Part shown: piece after piece, positions 9,179 through 31,471 of the stretch
How positions within the stretch are numbered: the first letter of the stretch is position 1
Layout of the letters: each line of letters begins with the position of its first letter
Source: an uncultured Acidobacteriota bacterium
GTDB taxonomy: Bacteria; Acidobacteriota; Vicinamibacteria; Vicinamibacterales; UBA2999
Assembly: GCA_963814395.1 (NCBI GenBank)
Contig: CAWFCS010000033.1
Span: 244,520 to 308,519 of the forward strand
Direction: 5' to 3'
Length of the DNA stretch: 64,000 nt
Notes under the pieces: model-generated
What the model saw: the letters and a program-made list of their open reading frames with translations, nothing else
The model's database searches: none
Told to the model about the DNA's origin: nothing
Position numbers and translations under genes: made by a program

Positions 9179-9232
9179 CGGGACGGCCGCGAGCGGTTTG
9201 CCTCCGCCCGCGGCCGGCAGTGCCGGTCTACT

Positions 9233-10406: not shown

Positions 10407-10479
10407 GGCGGCTCCTTATGAGTTGGGCTGCTAGTAGAGCGGAGGAACGCGAGCCACGCAAGCGTTTCCGTCGGGCGTG

Positions 10480-13142: not shown

Positions 13143-13193
13143 GGGGCGGAGCGATTATACGTGCCGCGTCCTCGCCCCCGACGGTCCACTGCA

Positions 13194-13218
13194 CCTCGTC
13201 TCAGCCCCTCGTCTCAGC
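13194..13218 (+). repeat. 12-bp direct repeat CCTCGTCTCAGC x2 (13-bp period) abutting a -10 element
   Basis: Copies at 13194-13205 and 13207-13218, then TATGCT at 13219-13224 and ATG at 13231. Confidence 0.6.
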
Positions 13219-13230
13219 TATGCTCGTCAC

Positions 13231-15341: not shown

Positions 15342-15911
15342 TCGGACGTATTGGAGGTGACCTCGACGCCCACGGCGTTGGCCACGAGCGTGGCGGTGGC
15401 TCGCGCCTGCGCCTTGCCCGGGGCGTCGCTGACCACCACTTCTGACCCGTCGCGCATCACGAGGGCCACGGGAAAGGTGACCACTTGCTTTCGGGGATGG
15501 TCCCGAGTCACGGCCACCCGTGCCACGTCGGCAAACGCGTAGCGCCGCCGGCGCGTGTAGATGCGGTCGTTGCGCACGGCGGTGAGATGCCGCTGGGTCA
15601 AGTCGAACACCGTCGATCGCCGGCGCAGCAACAGCACCCAGGCGAAGGCGCACGGCACTACGCCGGCCAGGGTGTTGAAGGCGAGGTCACGGACGAGGTT
15701 CGGCCATTCCTCTGGCGTGGCCACCGCGCCGGCCTCGCGCCAGATGCCCACCACGTGGTCCAGCGGGAAACAGGCCAGGAACAGCAGCACCGCGGCCAGC
15801 ATGTCCGCGTGCGAACGTGAACAGCTTGCGCTCGATCACGAGCTGGCCGGGCACGTCCCGGCGCACCACGACGCCCGAGGCCTGCGGTGTCCGCACCCGT
15901 CCGCCCGCCAT
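15338..15911 (-). CDS. Hypothetical membrane protein; probable frameshift near 15805
   Basis: ATG overlaps the upstream stop (TAATG at 15913-15909); two hydrophobic helices in ORF 15338..15802. Confidence 0.55.
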
Positions 15912-17105
15912 TACGGCGCCGGCTCGATGCGGATCACCGCGCCGTCGTCTTCCTCGGTGAGCAGGTAGATCAGGCCGTCGACTCCCTGGCGCACGTCGCG
16001 CACGCGCTGATGGAAGTCTTCGAGGATGGTCTCGCGCCGCAGCTCCCACAGCTTCTCGTTGAAGGCCACGCGCTGCAGCCCGCCGGTGCCCGGGATGCGG
16101 CCGCGCTGAATGCTGCCCACGAACAGATTGCCCTTCCACTCGGGAAACCGGTCGCCGGTGTAGAAGAGCAGCCCCGACGGCGTGATGCCCGGGTTCCACG
16201 TGATCCACGAGTCCGCCATCGCCGCGGTGGGCAGCGGCATGGGCGAGCCGTCGTTGTCGCGGCCGTAGCCGTGCGTGGGCCAGCCGTAGTTGCCGCCCGG
16301 CTTCAGGAAGTTGATCTTGTCGCCGCCGAGCGGGCCGAGTTCGGCCTCGACGATCTGCCCGGTGGGCGGATAGACCGCGATGCCGTGATGATCGCGGTGC
16401 CCGATGCGTGAAGATCTCGGGCCGGCTGCCGGCCGTGCCCACGAACGGATTGTCGGCCGGCACCGTGCCGTCGTCTTTCAGGCGCAGCACCTTGCCGAAG
16501 ATGGTGGTGGTGGCTTGCGCATCGGGCAGGCGTCCGGCGCCGCCCACCGTGATGTAGAGCAAGCCGTCGGCACCGAACGTCATGCGCGAGCCGCCAGTCT
16601 GCACGGCGTTGCCGGCGTAGAGCTCCTGCACGTTCGAGAACCCTGCGCCGTCGTAGCGGCCGCGCGCCAGGGCAAGCGTGAAGGTCGTGGCGTCGAGCGC
16701 CTTGTGATACGTGAAGTAGACCCAGCGGTTGTCGGCGAAGCGCGGATGCAGGGCCAGGTCGAGCATGCCGGTGGTGCGGCTCAGGCGCATGGCCGGCAGG
16801 CCGGCCAGCGGCGCCGGGTCGAGCACGCCGCTACGGATGGCCCGCACCTGGCCGGTGGACCGCACGCTCACCAGGAAGTCGCCGTTCGGCAGCGGCAGCA
16901 GGCTCCACGGCCGCTCGATGCCGTGGGCCACCACACTCACCCGCACCTTCTGCCGGAACAGCTCGTAGACCCGCGGCTCGGTGGGCAGCGGAAACCTGGG
17001 ACTGCCCGGCGCTGGGGGGCGCGGCTGCGCGAGCACCACGAACGAGCAGGCGGCCACGCTCGCGACGACGAGCGCACCGAGACGAGCAACAGAAGACGTC
17101 AGCAC
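15911..17105 (-). CDS. PQQ-dependent aldose sugar dehydrogenase (GSDH/YliI-like); frameshift near 16405
   Basis: Signal peptide; PWSL, LDLALHPRF, GKVLRL..DG.VPADNPF, NYGWP, ITPSGL.FY.GD.FPEW.G, RVRDVRQG.DG.IY. Confidence 0.88.
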
Positions 17106-17128
17106 CCGCCCATTCTAGGCGGTGCGGG

Positions 17129-18277
17129 CTACTTCCGCGCGGTCGCCGCGGCGGCGGGTGCGGCGGGCACGATCACGAACGTGCCGTACATCATGTCGGA
17201 GTCGAGCACGATCGTGCGGAGGCGCGTGGACGCATCGGCGGAGTAGACCTCGATGGTGCGGCCGGCCTCGTAGATGTAGCTGAGGCCGCTCGAGCTCGGC
17301 CGCATCTGCATGCGCGTGCGGGTCGGCACCTCGATGCGGCTCTGCACCCGCCGTTCGGCCAGGTTGATGGTCCACAACTCGTGGCGGCCGATCTCGGCGA
17401 GCAGCAGGTGCGCGCGCGCCCGGTCGGGCCCCACCGTGAAGCTCATGCTGTCGGCTGTGGGCACGGGCCCGATCGGAAAGGTGTCGACGGTCTTGGCGGC
17501 CAGGTCGATCTGTCCCACCACGAGCAGCTTGCGGCGCATCACCGCGTCGCTCATCGTGAACAGGCTGGTGGCGGTGCCGCGCGCATCGGCGGAGTCGTCC
17601 CAGGGACCGGGATCGAAGCGGCCCATGGCGGCCTCGGCTGGCAGCGACAGGTCCCAGCTGTCGACCTGTTCCATCGTGGCGGCATCGAAGATGTCGACCT
17701 GATTACCGAACACGTAGAGCAGCTTGCCGTCGGGCGAGAAGCGCAGCGCCACCGAGAAGTGCGTCGGCTCCGGGTCGATCGGCCACGGCACGGTGCGCGT
17801 CACCTTGTGCGCCGCCAGGTCGTAGAGGATGAACTCCGGCGCGCCGATCTCCCAGCGGTCGACCAGGCGGGTCGCCACCTTCGCCACGATCACCATGGTG
17901 CGGTGCTGCGGGTCGACCTCGTAAGCGAGTGCCCGCACGTGGCGGCGCGCGTCGCTCAGGGTGAAGCTGTCGAGGCTCTTGCGGCCGCGCACGTCGACCA
18001 CCTCGAAGCGCTCCTGGTTGGCGCTCTGCACGTAGAAGCGCGAGCGATCGGGCGAAAGCCGCACCGCAGATGGCGCGCCGGTCGTGAGCGGGATCTTCGT
18101 GAACGTCTCGGTGGCTTCGTCCACGGCCGTGAGGTGGCCGGAGTAGGAGCCCACGAAGATCGTGCCGGTGCCGGCCGACGGCGTGGGACGGGTTTGCGCC
18201 GTGAGACTGACGGCGGTCAGACCGAGCATCGCCACGAAGGACGCGACCACACGAGTCATGGGCCGGGATTCTGTCAT
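17129..18277 (-). CDS. Secreted seven-bladed beta-propeller resembling the quinohemoprotein amine dehydrogenase beta subunit / YncE family
   Basis: ATGA overlap with the upstream gene; signal peptide; LSPDRSRFYV, FSPDGKLLYVFG; segment order resembles QhpB as I recall it. Confidence 0.65.
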   Translation of the reverse strand: MTESRPMTRVVASFVAMLGLTAVSLTAQTRPTPSAGTGTIFVGSYSGHLTAVDEATETFTKIPLTTGAPSAVRLSPDRSRFYVQSANQERFEVVDVRGRKSLDSFTLSDARRHVRALAYEVDPQHRTMVIVAKVATRLVDRWEIGAPEFILYDLAAHKVTRTVPWPIDPEPTHFSVALRFSPDGKLLYVFGNQVDIFDAATMEQVDSWDLSLPAEAAMGRFDPGPWDDSADARGTATSLFTMSDAVMRRKLLVVGQIDLAAKTVDTFPIGPVPTADSMSFTVGPDRARAHLLLAEIGRHELWTINLAERRVQSRIEVPTRTRMQMRPSSSGLSYIYEAGRTIEVYSADASTRLRTIVLDSDMMYGTFVIVPAAPAAAATARK

Positions 18278-19239
18278 GGAACCTTGTCGCTGGCGCGTCG
18301 GGATCGCCAACGCTGCTCCAGCGCCGGCACGAGCACGCCGCCGATATTGGCCAGATTCAGATCTGGCAGCGGTGGGCGCTCGGCGCCTGGCCGAATCGAC
18401 CCGACCGCCGTGCGGCACACCCGGCCGAACGCCCGCAGCCGGTCGCCCACGGTGTAGCGCGTCTGCCGCCCGGTGGCCCGCACGAGCATCAGCGTAAGAT
18501 CGTCGGCCGCCAGGTTGTCGGGGTAGCGGTCGCCAATCTCACCAAGCAGCGCCGCGATGAGCGTGGACGGCTCGAGGTGGCCCAAGAGGCCCAGGATCTT
18601 GTGCACGCCGGCCTCGCCGAGCATCTCGCCGTCGGCATCCTGGGCCTCGATGAGCCCGTCGGTGTAGGCCAGCACGCAGTCGCCGTCCTGCAGTTCCACG
18701 TCGCTCGCGTCGTAGTCGGCGATGCCGAGAATGCCGAGCGGCAGGTTGCGTGGACCGGCCGCCCGCGATCCGTCGTGGCTGCTCAGGAAGCGCCATTCGC
18801 GCCGCGCGGCGCTGTAGATGAGCGGCCGCGGATGGCCGGCGTTGCAGACGGTAAGGCGGCGCGTGGGCGCGAAGTAGGTGGCGACGATGGCCGTGGCGAA
18901 CGCCGCCTGCGCCTGTAGTTCCACGAACTGCCGATTCAGCTGCCGCACGAGCTCGGTCTGGTCGAGGCAATTCACGAACCGGCGCATCAGCAGCCGCAGG
19001 TCGGCGGCCGTGCCCGCCACCACCTGCCCGTGCCCGGCCACATCGGCCACCATCAGCCGCGCGATCCGCCCCGTGGCGCAGCTCGAGGCGTAGACCACGT
19101 CGCCGCCCCGATGGGCGCCTTGATAGGGTTTGCTGTAGATCCACGCATCCAGCCCGCCGAACTCGGTGGCATGGTCGGCCAGATGACTGCCGCCCCACAC
19201 CTCCATGCAGGCCATCTGCTGCTGCCGCCCCGTCTCCAT
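18274..19239 (-). CDS. Stand-alone PP2C/SpoIIE-family Ser/Thr phosphatase
   Basis: GGDVVY, ADVAGHG, NAGHPRPL, LPLGI, YTDGLIEA, DDLT. TAGTAT lies 7 nt before the ATG. Confidence 0.9.
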   Translation of the reverse strand: METGRQQQMACMEVWGGSHLADHATEFGGLDAWIYSKPYQGAHRGGDVVYASSCATGRIARLMVADVAGHGQVVAGTAADLRLLMRRFVNCLDQTELVRQLNRQFVELQAQAAFATAIVATYFAPTRRLTVCNAGHPRPLIYSAARREWRFLSSHDGSRAAGPRNLPLGILGIADYDASDVELQDGDCVLAYTDGLIEAQDADGEMLGEAGVHKILGLLGHLEPSTLIAALLGEIGDRYPDNLAADDLTLMLVRATGRQTRYTVGDRLRAFGRVCRTAVGSIRPGAERPPLPDLNLANIGGVLVPALEQRWRSRRASDKVP

Positions 19240-19293
19240 CCCGCCTATACTACGGCCCCTGACGCAGGCTGGATGGGTGAACCGGAGGCGTTG

Positions 19294-19740
19294 ATGCATC
19301 GCATGTTCGGCATGCTCGTAACCGCCATGGCCGTGGCCGGAGGCGCACTGACGATGGCCCATGATCAGACCACCGGCCCGGCCGACGACCACGCGCAGCT
19401 GGCGTCACTGAACGACGACTACGTGCGGTCGGTGCTCACCTCCGACACGGCCCGCTTCGAGCAGATCCTGGCGGCGGATTTCCGGAACACCGGCGCCGAC
19501 GGCACGATCGCCAATCGGCGCGAGTTCCTCGCCCAGATCGCCAAGCCCTCGAATCTCACCAGCCTGCGCTGTGAAGACGTGGAGATTCGCCTCTTCGGCG
19601 ACACCGCCGTCATTCATGCCCGCACCGAATACGTGATGAGCGACGGCCGGCCCGGCAGCGGCCGCTACACCGACATCTGGCGCAAGCAGGATGGCCGGTG
19701 GCTGGCGGTGGCTGCGCACGTGACGCGCCTGGTGCGCTGA
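19294..19740 (+). CDS. Exported NTF2-like (DUF4440) protein
   Basis: GGAGG RBS; signal peptide; EIRLFGDTAVI, RYTDIWRKQDGRW.AVAAH. Confidence 0.8.
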   Translation: MHRMFGMLVTAMAVAGGALTMAHDQTTGPADDHAQLASLNDDYVRSVLTSDTARFEQILAADFRNTGADGTIANRREFLAQIAKPSNLTSLRCEDVEIRLFGDTAVIHARTEYVMSDGRPGSGRYTDIWRKQDGRWLAVAAHVTRLVR

Positions 19741-19835: not shown

Positions 19836-21311
19836 ATGCGTCTGCTTGCACGCGCGTTCGCCACGATGGCCGTGGCCACTCTGCTGTTGGCGCCAGGGCG
19901 GGCCGGCGCTCAGACGACGGTGCCGAGTGCGCCGCTGAACCTGGCGGCCAGCATCACCAACGACGTGCTGCTCGTGACGTGGGACGCCCCGGCCACGGGC
20001 GCGCCGATCCTGGCTACGTGCTGCAGGTGGGCGGGCGAGGGTCTGGGGAGCGGTGTTGCGATTCCCACCACGGCCCCGTCGTTCACGCTCGCCCATGCCC
20101 GGCGGCTACGCTCCCATCCTCACTTTTTCGGTGAGTGCGGTGAACATCGTGGGCCAGGGACCGGCCAGCGCCACCGTCGGCGTTGGCGCCGGGCTCGCAG
20201 GTGGTGCCGAGCGCGCCGCTGAACCTCGCGGCCAGCGTGGCCAACGAAGTGCTGACCATCACCTGGGACGCGCCGCTCATTGGCACGCCGATCGCCTCGT
20301 ACACGCTCTTCGCGGCCGGGACGGGCCTGGGGGGCGGCGTGCAGCTCCCCACCGTGGCCACGTCGTACTCCACGCCGTTTCCGAACGGCGTCATCGGCAC
20401 GTTCACCTTTGCCGTGAGCGCGGCGAACGTCGTGGGGCAAGGCCCGCTCAGCCCCGCGGTGAGCATCAGCATTGGCCCGACCTCGGTGCCGGTCGCCCCG
20501 CAGAACTCAGGGGCGGCGTCACCAACGACGTGCTGACGCTCACGTGGGACGCGCCCGCGCGGGGCGGGCCCATCGTGTCCTACGTGCTGAGCGTCGGCGG
20601 CAGCTTCTTGGGAGCCCGGCTTCCCCTGCCCTCGGCCGCCACCTCCTACAGCACCCCGCTACCGAACACGTACGTGGGCACGTTTGGGGTCACGGTGAGC
20701 GCGGTGAACCAACTTGGCGAAGGGCCGCCCAGCGCGGTGTTCATGCTGATCCTCGGACCCACGGCCGTGCCCGATCCGCCCCGCAATCTCACCGCGCAGG
20801 TCGTCGGCAACCTGCTCACCGTGGCATGGCAGCCGCCGGTGTCAGGCGCGCTGTCGTACGTGCTGCGTGCCACCGGCTCGAGCTTCCAAGGCGTGTGGAC
20901 ACTGCCGACCGAGTCGACATTCTTCACGGCTCCCGCCGGCCAGATGGCGCCGGGCAACTACGCCTTCACCGTCAGCGCCGTGAACACGCTCGGCGAAAGC
21001 GCCGCCACGGCGCCCGCCACCGTCACCATCGGGCCCCCGTGTCCCGTGCCGTCGGCGCCCACGCTGAGCGCGTCGCGCAACGGCAACGTGGTGTCGTTCT
21101 CGTGGACCACGCCCACCGTAGGCGTCGTGCGCAGCTACACGGCGCTCGTGTCTACCCCGGCGGTGGCGCCAATCAGGTGGCCGCCGACGTGGGCCTGGTG
21201 ACCGCCATCTCCGGGCCGGTCGCGAGCGGCACCTACTTCGTGCAGGTGCTGGCGCAGTCGGTGTGCGGCCCCGGCGCGGCGTCGAATCAAGTGCGGGTCG
21301 ATGTGCCCTGA
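19836..21311 (+). CDS. Secreted protein with about five fibronectin type III repeats; several frameshifts
   Basis: Signal peptide; repeated PSAPLNL.A...L..TWDAP...Y...VSAVN..G.GP units across frames; near-identical DNA at ~19920 and ~20204. Confidence 0.8.
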
Positions 21312-21315
21312 GCGC

Positions 21316-22040
21316 CTACTTCGAGGCGTCCTTCAGAAACCGCTCGATGACGGTCTGATGACCGGCGTACTCCGGCCGTTGCGCCGCCGTTTCGGTCGGA
21401 TACACCTGCAGGAACTCGCGCTGCACCGCGGCGAGCGCTGCGCTGATCGCCGTTCACCTCGGCGATTCGGCCCTTCAACAGCAGGCCGAAGAGATGGCCA
21501 GGTCGTTCGGTGGCGATCGACTCGGCCAGGGTCATGGCGCCGGCGCGGTCGCCCGAGGCGATGCGGATGAGGCCGGCGTGGAAGCGGGCATCGACGTCGG
21601 GCGAGACCAGCTGGTCGTAGGCCGCCAGGGCCATGGGCGAGAACGTCTTGACGGTGGCGGTGTCGGCGCCCTCGCTGGCCCGCATGACGCGGTCGAACAG
21701 GCGATCGAACCGCTCCACCGGGGTCATCGCGCTCAAGTCGGCTGGGGTGCTCCCCGGCCCCGACCCGAGATCGCCCGCACCGGGCGACAGCGCCGGCGTC
21801 GGACCGGTCGAGGCCGCCGGGGCCGGCCGAGCGGGTTGCGGCCGGCCCCCTGCGGGTGAGGGCAATCGCAGCGACCAGCGCAAGCAGCAACACGACCACC
21901 ACGGCGTAGGGCCACCACTCGGCTCGAGCTGCCCCGGCGGCCGTCGTCGCTGCGCCCGAGGCCGCGCCTCCGCACTCACTGCAGAACGGCCCGTGAAGGG
22001 TGGCGCCACAGGAGGGGCAATAGCGCACGGCCTTGGTCAT
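21316..22040 (-). CDS. Double zinc-ribbon + TM + TPR-like protein; last gene of the cytochrome operon; frameshifted
   Basis: CPSCG...FCSECG; hydrophobic segment; helical PVERFDRLFDRVMRA...DARFHAGLI region. Rebuilt C-terminus ...IERFLKDASK* ends at 21316. Starts 6 nt after the upstream stop. Confidence 0.7.
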
Positions 22041-22046
22041 GAACCC

Positions 22047-24007
22047 TCAGCGTAGACGGAACGTCAGGCCGGTCATGACCCGCCATTCGTTGTAGCCGTC
22101 GTCCATCGTGCGTTCCGTGGACACGAGCAGCGACGTGGCGCCCCACAGCAGCGCCGAGGCCGAGAGGCCCATCCGCTTGGTCTTGGGCCGCGTCTCGATG
22201 ACCAAGCCCGTCGCCTCGAGTGAAGCGGACCAGCGACAACGCCGTGGAGAAGTCCGCGGTGGCATACACGCGGCGGCCCAGCCCGCGCCCGGCCGACAGG
22301 TAGGTGGAGTGATAGCTGCCCGTGGGCCGCGACATGCGTGAATTCGAGAACGTCAGGTCGACGCCGGTGTCGAACACGTTCCCGCCGAAGCCGCCCACCA
22401 GCCACCGCCCGGTGGCCGCGTCGTCGCGGTTGTTCTTGTCGCGCGAATAGCCGGCGTAGACCCGCACGCGGGGCAGCACCTCCACCGTGGCCCGGCCGCC
22501 GAGCGATTCGTATTGCAGGCCGTCGATCGACTGCTGCGATACGGCCCGGCCCATCCGCAGGTCGTCGCTCAACCCGCGGGTGTCGACGGATCGGCCGCGA
22601 CTGAGCGTGCCCAGGAACTCCAGCGCGGCGCCCGGCGCTCACGCGGGCATTGCCGAAGAAGTAGGTCAGGCCCTTGTGACCCAACCCGCCGGCCGTGCCT
22701 GCGACGTCGTATTCGGCGGCCTGATACACGAAGAGCGGACCGGCCGGCACGAAGTTGGTGAAGGTCATCACCGAGCGTTCGGTCAGCGAGCCGTTGTGCA
22801 CGTTGACATAGCCTGCCACATGACGCCGGCCGCGCGCGCCCTCGAGCGTCATGTAGGCGCCGGCCTTGCGCACGCCCTCGCTGTAGCCGAACTTGTAGAC
22901 GTTGGGATCCAGGCCGCCAAAGAGGCCGCCGCGCCAGCGGCCCAGGCCGCGTGGTCGGGATGGGCGCCGATCGCCCCTCCAACTGCACGCCGGCCAGGGC
23001 GCCGAGGCCGCCGAGGTCGTCGAGCCAGAGATGTCCGGCACGGGCGCGCACGGCGCCGCCAGCCAGTCGGCCGCCGACGTAGCCGGTGTACACCGACACG
23101 CGGGGATCGCGGCCCTGAATCGAATACGCCGTGTGGCGCACATCGAGGCCGTACTCCACGCCGTCGGTGTCGCGTTCGGTGAGCTCGTAGGTGACGGCGG
23201 TGGTGACGTCGTTGTAGCTCGAAGTGGCACCGGCCGTCTGCGACGACCGCGCGCCGCTGGTATAGACCGATACGCGCCCGTTCGGGCGCACGCCGCGCGA
23301 CGCGCCGAAACCCGATCGGCTGCGTGGATCTCGGCGGCACGGTCGACCCCGCGGCGGCGGCTGGCGCGGATCGCGTGCGCCGACTGCGCCGCGCCTGTCA
23401 GCCGGTGCGGCAGACGTGGCCGGGGCAGGTGCGCTGGTTGGCGCGGGGCGCCGACGCTGAGCGGCGGGCTCGCGCTGGCGGGGGCGGGAGTCGGTGCAAC
23501 GAGCGCACGTTCGGTCAGGCGCGCTGGCGCTGCCGGCGCCACGCCCATCGATCGATCGGCTGATGGCCGGGGTGGCGGTGGCTCCGCCGCGCCGGGCGCC
23601 ACCACGATGGTGAGCTCCGAGTCGCCCGGCACGACTGCGGTCGTGACCGGCCCGGCAAGATCGAGCACCAGGCGCGTCACCGGCGGGTCGGCGGAGTTGA
23701 GCGCCACCCGCACCCGGCGCACGATGGCCCGTCCGGTGAGCGACGCCGGCACCTGGCCCGGTCCCACCCCCGGCAAGTCGATGAACACCCGCGGTGGGCC
23801 TTCGGTGGTCGGTGTCGCGGTGGCGGCGGGCAGCGCGGAGGTGCCGCGTACCGTGATCCGCACGAACGGGACCATCGAGGCTGACGGCCACGGTTCTGAA
23901 GCTGCACCGGCGCCACTGCCTGACGGCCCGCGGCCGGCGGCGCCGGCCGGCGCCGGCCAGGCGAGAGCAACGCAGCCCATCAGTGCAGCGTAGCGAAGAT
24001 GTTGCAT
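22047..24007 (-). CDS. AMIN domain + Pro/Ala linker + putative outer-membrane beta-barrel; frameshifted
   Basis: GGAAGGAG RBS; signal peptide; AMIN-like PPRVFIDLPG...VRRVRVA...VTRLVLDL; ~400 aa of Gly/Tyr-rich amphipathic strands ending MTGLTFRLR. Confidence 0.75.
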
Positions 24008-24009
24008 GG

Positions 24010-26088
24010 TCAGCTCCTTCCGTTCGGATGGCACGAGTAACAGGCCGCCGATTCGTAGCGGTAGCCGGCGCGGCCGCGGTGCTCGTTGTCGGTCTCGGAC
24101 CGGCCATGGCACGTGAGGCAATTGAAAGCCGGCGGGGCGTTGGTCGTATGGCACTGCACGCACGCCACGTTGTGGCGCCCGGTGAGCGGGAAGCGCGTGT
24201 GGGTGAAGCGGCCTTGCGTCCAGGCGGTGTCGGTGGCGCGGTGACACGACTCGCACGCGGTCGGGAAGCCCGACTGCGCGTGGTTCGGGCTGCGCGTGGC
24301 GTCGTAGCGCGCCCGATGGCAGCCCACGCAGTCGCGCGCGGTGCCGCGATAGACGCCGCTCACATGGCAGGTCGCGCACGCCTGAGTGGCGTGCACGCCC
24401 TGCAGCGCGAAGAACTGGCTGTGATTGAACGTCACCCCGCGCCAGCTGGTGTCGGTGGCGCGGTGGCACGACTCACACGCGGTCGAGAACCCGGCCTGCG
24501 CGTGATTGGGCGTCGTGGTGCGGTCGTACTGCGTGCGGTGGCAGCCCACGCAGTCCCTCGCGGTGCCCCTGAACACGCCGCCCACGTGGCACACGGCGCA
24601 GGCCACCGCCCCGTGCCGGCCCACCAGCGGGAACACCTGACTGTGGTTGAAGCCGGCGCCTGCCCAGGTCGAGTCGGTGGCCCGGTGACACGTCTCGCAG
24701 GTGGTCGAGAAGCCGGCCTGCGCGTGATTGGGCGCGGTCGTGCGGTCGTACTGCGTGCGGTGGCAGCCCACGCAGTCGCGGGCCGTGCCCTTGAAGACGT
24801 TGTTCACGTGGCACGCGGCGCAGTCCACGGCGGCGTGCCGGCCCACGAGCGCAAACGTCTGGTTGTGGTTGAAGTTCGCGCCGCGCCAGCTCGTGTCGGT
24901 GGGCCGATGGCAGTTCTCGCACGTGGTCGGGAAGCCGGCCGAGGCATGACTCGGCGCCGTCGTGCGGTCGTATTGCGTGCGGTGACAGCCCACGCAGTCG
25001 CGCGCCGTGCCCTTGTAGACGTTGTTCTTGTGACACGACACGCACGACTGGTTCTGGTGCAGGCCCACGAGCGGGAAGAACTGTCCGTGATTGAAGCCGG
25101 CGCCGCTGCCACTGCGCCAGCCGACGTCGGTCGTGCGATGACAGCTCTCGCACGTGGTCGGGAAGCCGGCCGCGATGTGATTCGGACTCGTCGTGCGTTC
25201 GTAGACGGTGCGGTGGCAGCCCACGCAGTCGCGCGGGGTGCCTTGGAACACGTTGTTGCGGTGGCAGGAGACGCAGGTCTGCTGGGTATGCTGTCCGGTC
25301 AGCGGGAACGTGGCATGGGTGAAGGCGCCGCCCCCGGTGGTGCGCCAGGAGGGCTCGTTGGCCCGATGGCAGGTCTCACACGTGGTCGGGAAGCCCGCCG
25401 CCGCGTGATTCGGATTCTGGGCCCGGGTGAAGTCGGTCATGTGACACGAGGAGCACTCGCGTGACGTGCCCTTGAACACGCTGTTCTTGTGGCAGTTCGC
25501 GCACGTCGTGGTGGCGTGCGGACCACTCAGCGGAAAGCTCGCGTTGTGATCGAAGCGGGCCTGGCTGAAGGCCACGTCGGACGGCCGGTGACAGGCTTCG
25601 CACGCCGTCGGGAATCCGGCCGCGGCGTGGTTGGGCGTCTTGGTGGCGGCGTAGTCCTTCTGATGACAACTCGCGCAGGTCACGGCCACGCCCGTGAACC
25701 GGCCGTTCGTGTGACACGACTCGCAGCCGATGGTGCGATGGGCGCCGTTGAGCGGCATGTTCGTCATGGCGCCGTGGTCCCAGCGCACGGCGGCCCAGCT
25801 GATCGTGCGGTGGCAGTTCTCGCACTGGGTGCCGAGCTGCGTCTTGAACTTGTCGTCTTGCTTACGCGCCCAGTGGCAGTCGTAGCACTGCGTCGGCGTG
25901 CCCTTGAAGACGCCCTTCAGATGGCACGACTCGCAGGCCACCGTCTGGTGCCGGCCGGTCAAGGGGAAGGTCGTGTTGCTGTGGAAGGCGCGGTTCGGCG
26001 TGTCGAACTGCGCCAGCGTCTGGCGGGTGGCGAGCGAGCTGAGGAACAGCACCACCGTGAAGGCGAGAAGCCAGGCGAACCGTTTCAT
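24010..26088 (-). CDS. 27-heme c-type cytochrome (nine tandem triheme modules), Sec signal peptide
   Basis: Uninterrupted 692-aa frame from MKRFAWLLAFTVVLF; 27 CxxCH counted; module F-x-H...FPL-G-H...CxxCH...CxxCH...PNH...CxxCH. Confidence 0.95.
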   Translation of the reverse strand: MKRFAWLLAFTVVLFLSSLATRQTLAQFDTPNRAFHSNTTFPLTGRHQTVACESCHLKGVFKGTPTQCYDCHWARKQDDKFKTQLGTQCENCHRTISWAAVRWDHGAMTNMPLNGAHRTIGCESCHTNGRFTGVAVTCASCHQKDYAATKTPNHAAAGFPTACEACHRPSDVAFSQARFDHNASFPLSGPHATTTCANCHKNSVFKGTSRECSSCHMTDFTRAQNPNHAAAGFPTTCETCHRANEPSWRTTGGGAFTHATFPLTGQHTQQTCVSCHRNNVFQGTPRDCVGCHRTVYERTTSPNHIAAGFPTTCESCHRTTDVGWRSGSGAGFNHGQFFPLVGLHQNQSCVSCHKNNVYKGTARDCVGCHRTQYDRTTAPSHASAGFPTTCENCHRPTDTSWRGANFNHNQTFALVGRHAAVDCAACHVNNVFKGTARDCVGCHRTQYDRTTAPNHAQAGFSTTCETCHRATDSTWAGAGFNHSQVFPLVGRHGAVACAVCHVGGVFRGTARDCVGCHRTQYDRTTTPNHAQAGFSTACESCHRATDTSWRGVTFNHSQFFALQGVHATQACATCHVSGVYRGTARDCVGCHRARYDATRSPNHAQSGFPTACESCHRATDTAWTQGRFTHTRFPLTGRHNVACVQCHTTNAPPAFNCLTCHGRSETDNEHRGRAGYRYESAACYSCHPNGRS
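24250..25300 (-). repeat. Intragenic tandem repeat with 222-231 nt period (triheme modules)
   Basis: The CVGCH-encoding block (g/a)cagcccacgcagtc recurs at 24319, 24541, 24763, 24985 and 25216. Confidence 0.9.
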
Positions 26089-28104
26089 CGGGCGTTCCCT
26101 TTCGCTGTGCGCGCCGCCGCCGGATGGTCGAAGCGGCGGGCGAGCACGTCGGGTTTGTGGCAATCGGCACAACGCGGTGCCCAACGCGCCGTTGTGCACG
26201 TCGCGATGGCAGCTGGTGCATTCGCTGCTGACCGCATAGCGCACGGCGGTGCCGCGCCCGGCCGGGAACTGTCCCGTGGCCTGGTCGTGGCAGGTCTCGC
26301 ACTTGGCCGACACGTGTGCGCCCACGAAGAAGCTGCGCAGCGCCGGGTTCTTGTGGGTGAAGTTCGCGATCTTGAAGGTCTGATCCGAGTGGCAGGTCTC
26401 GCACGCCGTGCCCACCTGGCCCAGATGCACGTCGGCGTGACAGGTCAGGCAGGCGCTGCCGATGCCGGTGAGCTTCACGGCCGTGCCGGTGCCGGCGGGG
26501 AACGCCTCGGTCTTCGACTCATGACACTTCTGACACGTCACCTGCGCGTGTTTGCCGCCGAGGCGGAACTGTCGCGCGCGCGTGGTCGAACGCCGGGGTC
26601 ACGGCAAACTTCGCGAGCGACACGGCATGACACGACTCGCAGGTCTTGCTCACCTGGCCGAGGTGCACGTCGGCGTGGCAGGTGGCGCAGACCTGGGTCG
26701 CCGCGGTGAACTTCACCGTGGCCAGGGGCCCGTGAACGCCCGCGCCCGCGCCGCCCGACCGGCACCGATGGGGGCGGGGCGCTGGTCCGGGCTCGCACCA
26801 GTGCGGGCATCGCCGCCGGGCCCGACAAGGTATGGCACGTCACGCACGTGGCGGGCGTGTGCGCGCCCTCGAAGAACGGCGCCGGGGTGCGATGGGCATA
26901 GGTCGTCACCGCGAAGCGCTCGGTGCCGTGACAGGTCTCGCACGACGCGCCGAGGTCGCCCTTGTGGGTGTCGTCGTGGCAGGCGCGCACAGTCGCGCTT
27001 GAGCCCGCGGAAATCGATGGCCGGCGCCGGCGCCGCCCGTCCGGTGCGGGCCGCCACGCGCGTGAGGTTCTTGTGGCACGCCACGCACGTGGCCGGGGCG
27101 TGCTTGCCCGTGAGCGGGAACGGCGTGGTCGCGTGATCGAACGGCGCCTTCGCGAAGCTCTGCTCGTTGTGGCAGGCGCTGCACGGTCTGCGTGAACGAG
27201 CCGCGATGCGGATCCTGGTGGCAGGCCGCGCAGGTGTCGTACTTGGGCGTCACCTGCAGGGCCGGCCGCACGTGGCACTCCGCGCACGCCGTCGTCTGGT
27301 GTTTGCCGAGCAGCGGATACTTCGTGCGCGCGTGGTCGAAACGGCGCGACCGCCACGACGCGGCGGTGTGGCAGGAGGCGCAGGATCTCGGTCATCCGCG
27401 GCGTGTGCGGGTCGGCATGGCAGTCGTTGCACTTGGCAAACGCCACGCCCTTGAACACCTGATTCTTGTGGCACGACTCACAGGCCACGCGCTGGTGTGC
27501 GCCGTCGAGCTGGAACGCGGCCTTGGTGTGATCGAACGCCTGGCGGCCCTCCTTGAAGGTCACGCGCGTGCGTGTGGCAGGTCTCGCACTTGGTGCCGAG
27601 CGAGCCCTTGTGCGAATCGGTGTGGCACGAGGCGCACGACGTGCTCACGGCCAGGAACGACCGCGTCTTGTGGCACGCGGCGCAGTTGGTGGCCAGCGGG
27701 GCGTGGCGGCCGTCGAGCGGGTAGTTCGCCTCACGCGCGTGATCGAACTTCGCCGTGTCGAAGGGCCGCAGTTCGCCGGCGGTGCCCTGGTGCTCGGCAT
27801 GACAGGTCACGCAGTCACCCTGCACATCCCGATGCACGCCGCGTCTGGCGCGAATCCGATCGGCCACCGGCTGATGGCAGGAGAGGCACTTGGCGGCGGT
27901 GACACGTTGACCGGCTTCGTGACACTTGTCGCAGCTGCGGATGCCTTCGAGCGAGGCGTGCGGCTGGCTGAGGCGTCCGGGAGAGACGAGCGCGCCGAGC
28001 TGCCGGGCGTCGGCGCGCGCCGGCGCCACAGCCCACATCGCCAGCAGCAGGGCCGCCGCGCACGTGAGGCGAATCGACGAGTGGCTCCACCATCGGCTCA
28101 CCAT
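26085..28104 (-). CDS. About 24-heme c-type cytochrome (eight triheme modules), Sec signal peptide; multiple frameshifts
   Basis: Signal peptide, then SPGRLSQPH..LEG..CDKCH; 24 CxxCH after frame joining. Rebuilt tail CADCHKPDVLARRFDH...GNAR* stops in ATGA overlap with the next gene. Confidence 0.88.
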
Positions 28105-29030
28105 CGGAACGGCACGTACCCGAGATAGAGCGACACCGCCACGTGCAGCGACACGATGGCGAACATCACCCACACGAGCGGCAGGTGGAACACATGCCAC
28201 AGGTCGAACAGCCGCTTGGTGGCCGCCAGGGTGTGCCGGCGCTGCTGCAGGCGGGCCCGTTCTTCGAACAAGGCCACGACCTGGGCCGCGGTGGTGGCGT
28301 CGGTGGTGGTGGCGAGGCTGGCGGCCAGGTCGTCGAGCGATCGCCGGATGGCCGCGTCGCCGCGGCGGCTGAACCACGACGGCCGGCTGATCGCGATGTC
28401 GGCCTCGAGCTGGTCGAGTGCCTCGAGCACGCCCGGCCCGGCTGTCCACTGCAGGTCGTCACGCACCGCCGACGCGCGATCGTCGAGCTCGGCCTGCGAC
28501 AGCTCCACGCCGCGGATGGTGCGGGGAATGCGCACGTACAGGTAGCGGCCGACGAATCCCGACAGGGCCACCAGCACCATCGACCAGTAGGCGGCCGACA
28601 CGATGCCGTTGAACTTGAAGGCGGTGTGGAACGTGACCAGCACCGGGCCGACGATGCCGCAGAAGATGTGCACTTCGAGCCAGCGCTTGAGGTTGCCGCC
28701 CGGGCGCGTGCGCGCGAAGCGTTTGCGCGCCATGTAGATGAACGGCATGAGCATCAGCACCGCGCCGGCCAGTCCCAGCGTCTGGCCCACCGGCCCCGAC
28801 GGCCGCAGCAGGCGGTGCGCCGGGCTGTAGCCGCGCACCGAGAGCGGCGTGCCGTAGTAGGTCCAGCCGTCGAGGCCGACGAGAATCCACAGGGTGACGC
28901 CGATCGCCACGGCGCCGCTCACGACCATCACGTGCATGAGCGCGCCCAGGGGCATGAGCAGCTGGCGCGCGCGCGACGGCGCGGACGCCGCCACGGCCGG
29001 GCGATCGAGCGTCATCGTCGGCGGGGCCAT
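28098..29030 (-). CDS. Integral membrane protein with paired His, ferric-reductase-like / putative di-heme cytochrome b
   Basis: About five TM helices; WLEVHIFCGIVGPVLVTFH, SGFVGRYLY and WHVFHLPL......VSLH. Confidence 0.75.
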   Translation of the reverse strand: MAPPTMTLDRPAVAASAPSRARQLLMPLGALMHVMVVSGAVAIGVTLWILVGLDGWTYYGTPLSVRGYSPAHRLLRPSGPVGQTLGLAGAVLMLMPFIYMARKRFARTRPGGNLKRWLEVHIFCGIVGPVLVTFHTAFKFNGIVSAAYWSMVLVALSGFVGRYLYVRIPRTIRGVELSQAELDDRASAVRDDLQWTAGPGVLEALDQLEADIAISRPSWFSRRGDAAIRRSLDDLAASLATTTDATTAAQVVALFEERARLQQRRHTLAATKRLFDLWHVFHLPLVWVMFAIVSLHVAVSLYLGYVPFRW

Positions 29031-29033
29031 CGG

Positions 29034-30389
29034 TCAGCCCACCTCAATCACGCAGTTGCTGCGCGGCGACGCCACGCAGGCCAGCACGTAGCCCGAGGCG
29101 CGGTCGTCGTCGTCGAGCACGCCGCCGTCGCAACTCACGTCGCCTTCGATGACGCGCGTGCGGCAGGTGCCACACACGCCGGCCCGGCACAGTGACGGAA
29201 TCTCGAGGCCGCCGGCGTCGGCGGCTTCGAGCAGCGTCTGCCCGCGGCCCACCGCGACGCTGCTCGACGACCGGCGTTCGCGCAACTGGAACTGCTCTTT
29301 CGACGGCGTGGCCTGCTCGGCCTCGCTCACGGCCTTGCCGGCCGAGGCGGCGACGGCGGCCTCGAAGAGCTCGGACCGCACTTGATCCTTGGGCACGCCC
29401 ATGCCCAACAGGGTCTGCGTCAGGCCGTCGATCATGGCCTGCGGCCCGCACAGCATCGACACGGCGTGCTTCAGATCGGGAACGGTCGAGGCCAGCAACC
29501 GGGCGTCGATGCGGCCGCGGTGCACGTCGGCCGGCGCGTCGCCGTTGGTCACCGCGAAGCACAGACGCAGCTGGTCGTGACGGCGCGCGAGCGTCAACAG
29601 GTCGTCGCGAAACGCGAACTCGCCCAGGGTCTTGGCCGAATAGAGCAGCGCCACGGGCCGGGTCGGCTCGGTCAGCAGCGCATGGCGCAGCATGCTCATG
29701 AGTGGCGTGATGCCGATGCCCCCGCCGAGCAGCACGAGCGGACGGTCGTCGCCGCCGGGATAGGTGAACGCCCCGGCCGGCGCTCGTACGCTCAACAGCG
29801 TGCCCGGACGGGCCATGGCATGCAGGGAGTTCGACACGAGTCCTTGCCGGCGCACGGAGATCTCCAGATAGCCGCGCGCGGCCGGAGCCGAGCTGATCGA
29901 GTAGCAGCGCACCACATCCTTGCCGTCGGCCCTCACGCGCAGCGTCAGGAACTGCCCGGGCGTGAAGTCGAAGCCGTCGGGTCGGGCCAGGCGGAAGGTC
30001 TTGATGTCATCGCTCTCCGCCATCACCGAAAGCACCGGCGTCTGCACGAACCCTTTGGGCCGTGTGTCGGAGGCGCGCGGCTGGCGCGCGCTCGGCGCCG
30101 GCGCGGCGGACGCGGGCCGGGCGGCGGGCTTCGCCGGTGCCGCCGGGCCACCGGCCGTGGTCAAGCGAGCGCAGACCATGAACCACGTCACCTGCGTAGC
30201 GAGGCCCGCAAACACCCCAAGCGCCGCGGGAAAGACCCACGGCGCGCCGGCGAGTGCCAGCGACACGAGCGCGAGCGGACTCAGGATGCGCTGGCCCTGA
30301 TGTCGGTGATTGCACAGCGCGGCAAATGCGAGATGCGCCGTCGTGGCGGCTGAGAGCCACGGCACGTCGAGCGCAGCGGAGGCGGTCAT
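29034..30389 (-). CDS. FAD/NAD(P)H-binding oxidoreductase with C-terminal [2Fe-2S] (FNR/PDR/PaaE-like) and N-terminal hydrophobic anchor
   Basis: RCYSISS, GLVS, GGGIGITP, CGP, ELF; CRAGVCGTC...LAC ferredoxin. N-terminal ~75 aa hydrophobic, followed by a Pro/Ala linker. Confidence 0.92.
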   Translation of the reverse strand: MTASAALDVPWLSAATTAHLAFAALCNHRHQGQRILSPLALVSLALAGAPWVFPAALGVFAGLATQVTWFMVCARLTTAGGPAAPAKPAARPASAAPAPSARQPRASDTRPKGFVQTPVLSVMAESDDIKTFRLARPDGFDFTPGQFLTLRVRADGKDVVRCYSISSAPAARGYLEISVRRQGLVSNSLHAMARPGTLLSVRAPAGAFTYPGGDDRPLVLLGGGIGITPLMSMLRHALLTEPTRPVALLYSAKTLGEFAFRDDLLTLARRHDQLRLCFAVTNGDAPADVHRGRIDARLLASTVPDLKHAVSMLCGPQAMIDGLTQTLLGMGVPKDQVRSELFEAAVAASAGKAVSEAEQATPSKEQFQLRERRSSSSVAVGRGQTLLEAADAGGLEIPSLCRAGVCGTCRTRVIEGDVSCDGGVLDDDDRASGYVLACVASPRSNCVIEVG

Positions 30390-30534
30390 GTCGTTGTTCC
30401 GGTTTAGGAAGTGTTTGGTCCTCGCAGTCGGAATGGCTGCATGGCGCATATCCACGCCATGCAAAACGACGGCCTGCCAGCCCGGCCATGGCCAGCCGCA
30501 GAAAATCCTGCGGCAAATGCGCTGGCGCAACCCT

Positions 30535-30553
30535 CATGAGAAATGCGTGAGAG
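30535..30553 (-). promoter_or_regulatory. OmpR/MprA-type direct-repeat box 1: CTCTCA-CGCATT-TCTCATG
   Basis: 19-bp box with TCTCA half-sites at 11-bp period, oriented toward the cytochrome operon. Confidence 0.75.
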
Positions 30554-30610
30554 CAGTTCCGTGGCTCGTTGTTACACGGCTGGTCAGTGCGCAGCCGCGG
30601 AATGATGCGG

Positions 30611-30629
30611 CTCTCATCTGGCTCTCATG
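30611..30629 (+). promoter_or_regulatory. OmpR/MprA-type box 2: CTCTCA-TCTGGC-TCTCATG
   Basis: Same consensus and spacing as box 1. Confidence 0.75.
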
Positions 30630-30690
30630 TTTCTTCGCGCCGCACGTCGTCGACGTGTGCTGTGCGCATCAGCGGGCGCAGCGCTGCGAC

Positions 30691-30709
30691 CTCTCACGAA
30701 GGTCTCATG
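30691..30709 (+). promoter_or_regulatory. OmpR/MprA-type box 3: CTCTCA-CGAAGG-TCTCATG
   Basis: Same consensus; followed by a possible -10 (TGT-TACAAC, 30716-30724) ahead of the regulator gene. Confidence 0.75.
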
Positions 30710-30790
30710 CGGACTTGTTACAACTGCCTGCGGATGGCCAAGGCACGGCGCGAGCGTCGGCCCACCGCGCCATTCGAGGTGCCCCACGCA

Positions 30791-31471
30791 ATGCGTCTAC
30801 TCGTCGTCGAAGACGACCCGGACATCAGCCGCTTCATCGTGCGCGGCCTTTCGGAAGAGCGTCACCTGGTGGATCTCGTCGAGGACGGCCTGTCGGCCGT
30901 CGAACTGGCGGCCGCCGAGGAGTACGACGTGGTCATCCTCGATCTGATGCTGCCGAGTCTCGACGGCTTCGACGTCTGCCGCCGCATGCGGGTGCGGGGT
31001 GTGGACACGCCGGTCATCATCGTGACTGCGCGCGACGCCGTGGCCGACCGCGTCGCGGCGCTCGATGCTGGCGCCGACGACGTCTTGGTGAAGCCGTTCG
31101 TGTTCGACGAGTTGCTGGCGCGGCTGCGCGCACTCGGCCGTCGCGGCCGTAGCCGGCACGTCACCCACCTGCTCGAGTACGGCGGCATCGCGATCGATCC
31201 GGTGGCCCATCTGGTGACGGTGGCCGGCCGACCGGTGACACTCACCGCCACCGAATACCGGCTGCTCACGTTCCTCGTCCGCCGTGCCGAAACGGTGGTG
31301 ACGCGCGAGCAGCTGGCCCAGCACGTGTGGGGCGGCGACTACGATTCGCGTTCGAACAATGCCGACGTCTACGTGGGCTACGTGCGCCGCAAGCTCCAGG
31401 CGATCGAGCCGCGGCCGCTCATTCACACGCTGCGCGGTCTGGGCTACATGCTGAAGGTGAACGCGCCGTGA
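30791..31471 (+). CDS. Orphan OmpR-family (MprA/CusR-like) response regulator
   Basis: MRLLVVEDD, ILDLMLP, GADD..VKPF, winged helix LTATEYRLL...DVYVGYVRRKL...IHTLRGLGY. No adjacent kinase. Confidence 0.93.
   Translation: MRLLVVEDDPDISRFIVRGLSEERHLVDLVEDGLSAVELAAAEEYDVVILDLMLPSLDGFDVCRRMRVRGVDTPVIIVTARDAVADRVAALDAGADDVLVKPFVFDELLARLRALGRRGRSRHVTHLLEYGGIAIDPVAHLVTVAGRPVTLTATEYRLLTFLVRRAETVVTREQLAQHVWGGDYDSRSNNADVYVGYVRRKLQAIEPRPLIHTLRGLGYMLKVNAP

Follow-up and report, generated by a model that had tools for sequence, protein, structure and literature searches.

Genes at the locus

We analysed a 64 000-nucleotide (nt) stretch of genomic DNA, referred to below as the window, from an uncultured bacterium of the order Vicinamibacterales (phylum Acidobacteriota; NCBI assembly GCA_963814395.1, contig CAWFCS010000033.1, positions 244 520 to 308 519 of the forward strand). 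The window has a G/C content of ~70%; the site belongs to contig C33 of a 5.95-Mb genome in 33 contigs. On the minus strand lies a cluster of six genes in which an earlier note, made from the letters alone, had recognized an electron conduit leading from NAD(P)H to the cell surface. Judging from sequence, the first five genes would make up a module that works like a conduit, falls outside every known conduit or NADPH-oxidase (NOX)-type family that we tested, and contains two protein families without a name. The carrier is a soil or sediment bacterium and, as had been thought probable, an acidobacterium; homologues of the membrane protein are labelled Vicinamibacterales or Acidobacteria. The features are as follows (positions are those of the window).

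30389 to 21316, minus strand: six-gene cluster, all genes co-oriented
29034..30389, minus strand: reductase gene (ATG 30389, stop 29036-29034, from reading of the open reading frame (ORF)); membrane-anchored ferredoxin-NADP+ reductase (FNR)-type protein, 451 amino acids (aa), identified by Pfam domains and alignment
28098..29030, minus strand: membrane protein gene (29030-28098), after a 3-nt gap; 310-aa protein of no named family with five predicted transmembrane helices and a ~100-aa cytoplasmic helical insert
26115..28104 (3' end approximate), minus strand: cytochrome 1 gene (ATG 28104, 7-nt overlap with the end of the membrane protein gene, counted from the translation); secreted c7-repeat multiheme cytochrome, 23 CxxCH over three frames
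24010..26118, minus strand: cytochrome 2 gene (ATG 26118, stop 24012-24010), overlapping or abutting the end of the cytochrome 1 gene; secreted, 702 aa, 27 in-frame CxxCH between 25935 and 24042
22047..24007, minus strand: barrel gene (ATG 24007, stop 22049-22047), after a 2-nt gap; outer-membrane protein with a signal peptide, one AMIN domain, a Pro/Ala-rich linker and a ~413-aa C-terminal beta-barrel domain
21316..22040, minus strand: Zn-ribbon gene (ATG 22040), after a 6-nt gap; Zn-ribbon protein with one transmembrane helix and a periplasmic domain, CPSC...CSEC visible, two frame changes

The spacing of the six genes given in the earlier note (3 nt, overlap, overlap, 2 nt and 6 nt) was reproduced, and its observation that the gene order follows the cell envelope from inside to outside is supported by the present assignments. 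In G003, one of the related genomes, the genes of cytochrome 1 and cytochrome 2 overlap by 4 nt.

Five of the genes are conserved together

Among 40 relatives that we searched, eight carry a full-length homologue of the membrane protein; in the genus of the window such a homologue is found in 7 of 18 other genomes. All eight related loci contain, in fixed order, the genes for the reductase, the membrane protein, a 24-heme cytochrome and a second cytochrome, the latter with 27, 24, 36, 21 or 18 hemes. The barrel ORF can be read in seven of them, and the eighth (L018) stops at a contig end. Scanning one genome per species for the pattern, we found 169 loci that code for a relative of the membrane protein; the locus counts given here refer to the best 80 of these 169. 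Nearly all of the 80 belong to Acidobacteriota (Vicinamibacterales, Thermoanaerobaculia, Holophagae and others), and a few carry implausible labels. Four loci labelled Bifidobacteriaceae, Bifidobacterium or Methanoregulaceae (L029, L043, L048 and L062) hold the same GC-rich operon under labels that seem to stem from faulty binning or taxonomy in the public entries.

Runs of CxxCH codons are present in 77 of the 80 loci, and at least 73 of them start ~90-420 nt after the membrane protein gene on the same strand. In L071 the run starts 2.5 kb later, the positions listed for L037, L054 and L081 belong to another gene, and L034 and L097 end at the membrane protein gene. A Cx4Cx2C ferredoxin motif lies 130-560 nt upstream of the membrane protein gene in 56 of 80 loci (46 with a stricter pattern), and either of two barrel motifs is found 4.4-10.6 kb downstream in 47 of 80, many of the others ending too early. 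As the motifs are exact and many contigs are short, these counts are lower bounds. In the loci of Holophagales and Thermoanaerobaculia the order is likewise kept, with the two cytochromes fused into one ORF. The distribution of the membrane protein is patchy: when the phylum was sampled evenly, 41 of 301 genomes gave a match at E <= 1e-10, including 39 of the 274 genomes of high quality; by genus, the figure is 38 of 185.

That all six genes are conserved as a unit, as had been proposed, thus holds for the first five, which stay together across classes of Acidobacteriota, but not for the Zn-ribbon gene. A 101-aa piece of the latter has a good homologue (E 3.6e-41) in only one of the eight operon-bearing relatives, G003, and there on another contig (C40), while the operon lies on C41, followed by a convergent gene. 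Because the sixth gene is adjacent and co-oriented but not co-conserved, we take the conserved unit to consist of five genes. Its product had been described as a Zn-ribbon/TPR protein; the CPSC...CSEC ribbon is visible, with a double zinc ribbon (DZR) match below threshold (17.7 versus 27.3 bits), whereas the TPR part was not confirmed by any search. Since the genes flanking the operon are not the same in genomes G000 and G003, the five-gene block appears as a self-contained module.

The reductase and the membrane protein

The reductase begins with a hydrophobic part of ~100 aa (about three helices), which is followed by FAD-binding, NAD(P)H-binding and C-terminal plant-type [2Fe-2S] domains, all of them above the Pfam cut-offs (FAD_binding_6, 53 bits; NAD_binding_1, 54 bits; Fer2, 64 bits). 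The motifs RCYSxSS, GGxGITP and CGP and the cysteines C401, C406, C409 and C438 are invariant in an 11-row alignment spanning three classes. By its domains and motifs the protein is a member of the FNR-like reductases with a C-terminal plant-type ferredoxin (PDR/PaaE kind). NCBIfam equivalogs are not reached, neither PaaE (201 versus 420.8 bits) nor the NADH oxidoreductase PRK10684 (192.5 versus 383 bits) nor GbcB (177.9 versus 500 bits). With scores so far below the cut-offs, the fold class of the reductase is known but it belongs to none of these named equivalogs. It shares the order of FAD, NAD and C-terminal plant-type ferredoxin domains with the PaaE or phthalate-dioxygenase-reductase type, and differs from it in the additional ~100-aa N-terminal membrane anchor with invariant His and in its predicted partner, which is a membrane protein and not an oxygenase. 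Within the anchor (window positions 30100-30389), Thr16, His19, His28, Trp69 and Cys73 are invariant across the three classes; this conservation suggests a role beyond anchoring; the segment might, for example, bind another cofactor, offer a surface for docking or contain a quinone site.

In the membrane protein, the histidines 72, 121, 135, 279, 282 and 296 are invariant among 21 aligned sequences reaching down to 45% identity. Four of them form two conserved H-x13-H pairs, H121/H135 and H282/H296, each 14 residues apart. An AlphaFold2 model (predicted local distance difference test (pLDDT) 73, predicted TM-score (pTM) 0.59) places helices at residues 28-52, 80-108, 114-139, 143-167 and 245-302; combined with the positive-inside rule, it predicts H121 and H282 to lie close to the cytoplasmic side and H135 and H296 close to the periplasmic one. 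Paired helices that each carry His residues 14 apart are the classic arrangement of a b-heme pair across a membrane, as known from cytochrome b, NOX and their relatives. We therefore read the two pairs as the putative ligands of two stacked b hemes, a reading that draws on the aligned residues and the model. The His pattern of a di-heme transmembrane cytochrome b and, by prediction, its placement are present and are kept in distant homologues.

Searches with the membrane protein did not lead to a named family. It has no Pfam or NCBIfam match above cut-off, and the weak Pfam matches among its 21 members (Ni_hydr_CYTB 4/21, DUF4405 4/21, Ferric_reduct 2/21; E <= 0.1) are all to di-heme b families. 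When PDB sequences were searched with a profile, the only matches were chance ones to coiled coils (best E 0.043), and in the ESM Atlas we found only unnamed clusters of Acidobacteriota and Gemmatimonadota, with no structure model there. STEAP4 and NOX5 are among the noise-level Foldseek rows (E ~2). Five helices are predicted, versus six in the fold of the ferric reductase domain superfamily, where two bis-His b hemes are held by helices 3 and 5.

Two further contexts support the candidate role of the membrane protein as a relay from cytoplasm to periplasm. The first is a metagenomic protein of 751 aa (P0123), a fusion of a 4Fe-4S dicluster domain, a Pyr_redox_3 flavoprotein and a C-terminal domain that is 27% identical to the membrane protein; it keeps H72, H121, H135, H282 and H296, and has Arg in place of H279. 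The second is a three-gene locus in genome G027 (L010, contig C78, 48-3398, minus strand), where a distant homologue stands between a cNMP-binding/4Fe-4S dicluster protein and a membrane-anchored multiheme cytochrome, again with both H-x13-H pairs kept (hhalign probability 97.9, E 3.3e-13). Two other proteins, P0121 and P0122, came up as longer fused forms; they look like read-through of the neighbouring reductase gene and were not used. A further longer form, P0124, showed no domains. A complex prediction of the reductase, the membrane protein and two hemes scored 0.00 against a mark of 0.32 in a run without controls, and counts neither for nor against the proposal.

How electrons would pass from the one protein to the other can be read in two ways. 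The FNR-type protein might reduce membrane quinone, with the di-heme membrane protein acting, like CymA, ImcH and CbcL with their other folds, as a quinol dehydrogenase that feeds the periplasmic cytochromes; apart from its new parts, this would be a porin-cytochrome conduit of the ordinary, quinol-fed type. Consistent with this are the invariant His, Trp and Cys in the membrane part of the reductase and the weak matches of 4 of the 21 membrane-family members to Ni_hydr_CYTB (best E 2.3e-4), as quinone sites are known from di-heme b proteins with five or four helices, such as NarI, FdnI and members of the Ni_hydr_CYTB family. We nevertheless consider a quinone-fed system unlikely, for the reductase ends in a [2Fe-2S] one-electron carrier, which is better suited to heme than to quinone, its gene lies 3 nt from that of the membrane protein and is linked to it in at least 56 of 80 loci, and relatives of the membrane domain are fused to or stand beside other cytoplasmic FeS and flavin proteins. 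In the reading that we prefer, electrons would enter directly from NAD(P)H and not by way of quinone.

The earlier note had seen no known quinol input family in the cluster. Indeed, none of the six products matches NapC/CymA, ImcH or Cbc proteins in Pfam and NCBIfam at E <= 0.01; the NrfH model gives 16 bits with a cut-off of 134.

The multiheme cytochromes and the outer-membrane barrel

In the window 50 CxxCH patterns are visible in three minus-strand frames (40+5+5), which we divide between cytochrome 1 (23) and cytochrome 2 (27). In intact relatives the two proteins have 24 and 27, and the sum of 51 equals the number of c-hemes that had been estimated (~51). Intact orthologues of cytochrome 1 are ~673 aa long with 24 CxxCH; the one of G003, also with 24, matches Cytochrome_C7 over 9 stretches (E 2e-32) and passes the NCBIfam model nanowire_3heme TIGR04257 (45 bits, cut-off 40). 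Cytochrome 2 consists of nine triheme repeats of ~75 aa, matches Cytochrome_C7 over 7 stretches (E 1e-37) and begins with the signal peptide MKRFAWLLAFTVVLFLSSLA. Sec-type signal peptides can be read in both sequences, and with Cytochrome_C7 scores of 111-128 bits over 7-9 stretches both proteins belong to the c7-repeat 'nanowire' kind of GSU1996. A comparison with PDB sequences gave no entry close to either cytochrome. CcmF- and CcmC-like genes, which had been expected elsewhere in the genome, are present.

The length of the cytochromes varies widely among related loci. In L068 (10855-14928), a metagenome-assembled genome (MAG) of Holophagales, both cytochromes are one ORF of 1357 aa, and in L085 (~10800-15558), a MAG of Thermoanaerobaculia, one ORF of ~1580 aa; in both loci a barrel gene of 438-440 aa without AMIN follows, and CxxCH patterns number 54 and 63, respectively, over the whole locus. 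In L058 an ORF of at least 3332 aa (8479-18474, plus strand) comes right after the membrane protein gene and runs off the contig without a stop. Within it, 134 CxxCH patterns are in frame, with 1.24 expected by chance in the locus, and from ~10858 onward it has a tandem period of 441 nt (147 aa, six hemes), a kind of repeat array that can be mis-assembled. The record named in the accessible part of 10.1101/2024.01.05.574438 is 113 motifs for one putative cytochrome.

The barrel domain of the window is readable as pieces in three minus-strand frames; we thus turned to the orthologue of G003. A model of its last 413 aa, built with 34 aligned sequences, has a pLDDT of 89.7, a pTM of 0.80 and 24 strands by DSSP, so that the product of the 22-24 kb region does model as a beta-barrel, of ~24 strands. 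Foldseek gives the best TM-scores (0.53-0.54) to the 24-strand FimD usher pore. In a VIA wide search, 22-strand barrels of SusC/TonB-dependent transporters come first (Z 15-19.3), FimD/PapC ushers reach 15.8, and MtrB (6r2q_B) aligns over 332 residues with Z 14.2. The barrel belongs to no Pfam family. Its own family comprises 202 clusters at E <= 0.001 among 1.84 billion representatives (search with a trimmed alignment), and most full-length members are 435-455 aa long and consist of a signal peptide and the barrel only; such members thus lack a plug of their own. Of the 'AMIN-beta-barrel' description given to this gene, the barrel stands on the model, while the AMIN domain is just under the Pfam cut-off of 20.5 (18.3 bits in the window, 20.2 bits in G003) and is optional, with no copy in G020, one in G003 and in the window and three in G017. 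Where present, it probably tethers the barrel to peptidoglycan in this genus. A barrel of such width and with no plug of its own would have to be filled; the co-conserved cytochrome suggests itself for this place, much as MtrA sits in MtrB.

The same cytochromes might also stay in the periplasm and buffer electrons, with the barrel serving for the passage of solutes or shuttles or for anchoring. In favour of such a capacitor one can point to the c7-repeat 'nanowire' kind of the cytochromes, as such proteins are described as periplasmic capacitors in the part of PMC10138318 that we could draw on, and to the cluster, which encodes no outer-surface lipoprotein cytochrome. Against it, the barrel without its own plug is co-conserved with the cytochromes across classes, and the single cytochromes of relatives, with 1357 aa and at least 3332 aa (134 CxxCH), far exceed the width of the periplasm. 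The length of such a wire is reportedly ~1 nm per heme, from the GSU1996 structure. We give a purely periplasmic role a low probability, and favour cytochromes that reach through the barrel to the cell surface.

Frame changes within the locus

The earlier note was right in pointing to indels. In a plot of the G/C content at third codon positions (GC3), the frame shifts ~7 times in cytochrome 1, ~8 times in the barrel gene and twice in the last gene; the reductase and membrane protein genes keep one frame, as does cytochrome 2 for nearly its whole length. In five relatives (G003, G015, G017, G018 and G010) each gene is a single open frame. Cytochrome 1 of G008 is in two pieces with 12+11 CxxCH, the locus of G019 ends at a contig end, and that of G020 is complete with the exception of the AMIN domain. 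For a comparison at read level we used Logan contigs of related strains, among which no run contained half of the sequence words. In public contigs from four runs, derived from strains 95-99% alike, single bases are absent at 23307, 23379, 23400, 23449, 23462, 26750-26758 and 27184; these are the positions where the frames of the window shift. The completeness of this genome is 76%, compared with 97-100% for genomes of like size from the same genus.

Just downstream of the operon, a gene for a fibronectin-type-III (fn3) repeat protein (20053-21311, plus strand; fn3 E 7e-11) is found in two overlapping frames (ORFs 20053-21201 and 20472-21311), which is probably a further assembly indel outside the operon.

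With intact genes in relatives and related contigs that lack the extra bases, the frame changes in the operon are probably assembly indels and not decay, as far as sequence comparison can tell. As the runs compared come from relatives and none is the sample itself, assembly error is likely but not proven. The alternative is a pseudogene cluster that is decaying in this genome, with the frame changes as real mutations and the module dead here. What speaks for it is that the changes (~17) cluster in three of the six genes, with reductase, membrane protein and cytochrome 2 intact. It is hard to reconcile, however, with a GC3 that is still high in the shifted frames, with the strains 95-99% alike in which the single bases are missing where the frames change, with 76% completeness in 33 contigs, as expected from an assembly with many indel errors, and with the neighbouring fn3 gene, likewise in two frames. 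We regard decay as quite improbable and continue with the locus as a functional one.

A proposed NAD(P)H-fed conduit

We consider it slightly better than an even bet that the five-gene module conducts electrons outward without conserving energy and receives them directly from NAD(P)H in the cytoplasm. The reading is built on computed domains and motifs, the co-conservation of the five genes, the barrel fold, and a membrane family that is found between cytoplasmic FeS/flavin proteins and multiheme cytochromes. In it, the reductase would take two electrons from NAD(P)H onto FAD and release them singly through its C-terminal [2Fe-2S] domain, docking directly on the five-helix membrane protein. 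The latter would bind heme b and move the electrons across the inner membrane on two b hemes, one near each face. From there the two secreted c7-repeat cytochromes, with 24 and 27 hemes, would act as a long heme wire, which the plugless outer-membrane barrel of ~24 strands would allow to pass and to reach the cell surface. Possible acceptors there are Fe(III), Mn(IV), humic matter, a partner cell or distant oxygen. Electron flow would be downhill in redox potential and, because negative charge leaves the cell, would be driven by the membrane potential and dissipate it. With downhill flow and a membrane potential dissipated as in NOX enzymes, the module would serve as a vent for redox balance, restoring NAD(P)+, and not as a proton-pumping respiratory chain.

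Several observations weigh against this reading. The structural model of the membrane protein is only moderate (pLDDT 73, pTM 0.59) and matches no solved di-heme protein: no PDB entry was reached by Foldseek at E <= 0.001 (all E > 0.4), and the best hit of the VIA wide search, to helices of ABC transporters (Z 11.8), is within the noise of helical bundles. Its Ferric_reduct match stays below the cut-off (17.2 versus 28 bits) and covers residues 85-145 only, and it may contain a quinone site. For the outer membrane, MtrB is not the top structural match of the barrel (Z 14.2, versus 19.3 for SusC), and in neither cytochrome could we read a lipobox or lipoprotein signal of the kind found in Geobacter outer-surface cytochromes. 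One locus (L042, 428-2827) has reductase and membrane protein genes with no CxxCH in the 10 kb downstream, and is either a cytochrome-less variant or a rearranged contig. Finally, genes are broken in the window itself, and if these breaks were real the locus would be dead in this strain.

The direction of flow could also be reversed. Electrons from Fe(II), a cathode or a partner cell would then reduce NAD(P)+, as in PioAB/MtoAB systems but through to the cytoplasm. Porin-cytochrome conduits do run either way (Mto/Pio), and sequence alone does not fix the direction. Yet by textbook potentials electrons moving inward would have to climb two gradients, that of redox potential between c7-type hemes and NAD(P)+ and that of the membrane potential, and the cluster encodes no energy-coupling subunit; we deem inward flow very improbable indeed and retain an outward, NAD(P)H-driven conduit.

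A bolder version of the outward conduit, which we regard as possible though distinctly short of probable, sees in the module a counterpart of the eukaryotic NADPH-oxidase/ferric-reductase principle. NAD(P)H would be wired without quinone and with no energy conserved, via a new di-heme family, into a covalent single-chain c7-repeat nanowire that runs through an usher-sized barrel and projects tens to >100 nm from the cell. The cytochromes would be threaded folded, bead by bead, and throughout the phylum the number of repeats would set the length of the wire, from ~40 hemes to at least 134 in a single polypeptide. If true, many uncultured Acidobacteriota of soil and sediment would be capable of a fermentation-like dumping of electrons on minerals, humics and neighbours.

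Relation to known systems

In agreement with the previous assessment, the cluster cannot be equated with Mtr, Pio/Mto, Pcc or Ext systems, for which we obtained sub-threshold family matches only. MtrCAB of Shewanella and PioAB/MtoAB resemble it in the multiheme cytochrome gene that stands beside a large barrel gene and in a plugless barrel of more than 20 strands. There is no membership by sequence: MtrB_PioB of Pfam does not match the G003 barrel at E <= 0.1 and matches 1 of 34 family members at E 0.018, and the MtrA/DmsE decaheme family (TIGR03508) gives 35.3 versus 192.2 bits. Moreover, the cytochromes described here are not decahemes but have 24 and 27 hemes in c7 repeats, an MtrC-like surface lipoprotein is missing from the cluster, and the predicted input is an NAD(P)H reductase with a b-type membrane protein in place of quinol through CymA. 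The Geobacter Pcc (OmaB-OmbB-OmcB) and ExtABCD-type systems are similar in their compact clusters with a porin-like barrel of ~400-450 aa and multiheme cytochromes. They differ in that ExtN/ExtO matches are sub-threshold (19-24 versus 200 bits), no lipoprotein cytochrome is encoded here, and the inner-membrane input module is part of the same operon.

The cytochromes themselves are closest in kind to Geobacter GSU1996, GSU0592 (12 hemes) and GSU2210 (27 hemes), likewise single-chain strings of triheme c7-type domains, which the available part of PMC10138318 discusses as periplasmic capacitors. GSU2210 even equals cytochrome 2 in its number of hemes, as given there; a dedicated reductase, b-type membrane protein and barrel, as found in our module, are not reported in that part of the source.

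With NOX, ferric reductases, STEAP and MsrQ the module has its proposed logic in common, i.e. cytoplasmic NAD(P)H to flavin, to two stacked b hemes, to an outside acceptor, as well as helices with His pairs 14 apart. By contrast, the flavin module here is a separate, membrane-anchored protein with an added [2Fe-2S] domain, the membrane protein has five predicted helices and a ~100-aa cytoplasmic insert and resembles neither NOX5 nor STEAP nor any other solved structure in the fold searches (Ferric_reduct 17 versus 28 bits), and electrons would be accepted by a chain of ~51 c-hemes and not by oxygen, iron or a protein carrying flavin. Bacterial MsrQ-like and PepSY-like proteins fused to NAD-binding domains are described in the accessible part of 10.1101/2021.01.07.425746.

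The flavin-based extracellular electron transfer of Gram-positive bacteria (Ndh2, EetA/B, PplA) resembles the proposed path in being a dedicated, non-proton-pumping route from NADH to the outside for redox balance, but it relies on flavinylated proteins and a special quinone and involves neither cytochromes nor an outer membrane. We found no sequence relation of the module to the Ndh2, EetA/B and PplA route.

In the literature we found no paper describing the five-gene operon, although the supplements of PMC11475568 and 10.64898/2026.05.27.727921 may list related clusters. The latter, a preprint on peat, comes closest; the part of it available to us deals with other Acidobacteriota clusters with cytochromes of 8-13 hemes. 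Large cytochromes of unknown substrate are noted in the part of PMC8100337 that was accessible, and the accessible part of PMC11475568 contains no mention of Acidobacteriota, NADH or ferredoxin.

Acidobacteriota are among the most abundant bacteria of soils and sediments, and little is known about where their electrons go under oxygen shortage. To our knowledge, all characterised Gram-negative porin-cytochrome conduits draw on the quinol pool. An NAD(P)H-fed conduit, if true, would be a different bioenergetic solution, serving redox balancing rather than respiration, and would change the genome-based prediction of iron, manganese and humic reduction by Acidobacteriota. The membrane relay and the barrel represent two protein families without a name or a solved relative, and single-chain heme wires of widely differing length offer a natural series of bioelectronic interest. 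Being compact and, if our reading is right, independent of the quinol dehydrogenases of a host, the five genes lend themselves to a direct test by heterologous expression.

Surroundings of the operon

Scanning positions 20800-30700, we obtained no promoter-like sites and two terminator-like sites, the latter on the other strand and fewer than in shuffled sequences; such scans are uninformative for this phylum. An OmpR-type response regulator (30569-31471, plus strand) is encoded divergently from the operon, and downstream of it lies a gene for a SpoIIE-type phosphatase (18274-19392, minus strand). Neither of the two stands beside the operon in G003, where it is flanked by peptidase genes.

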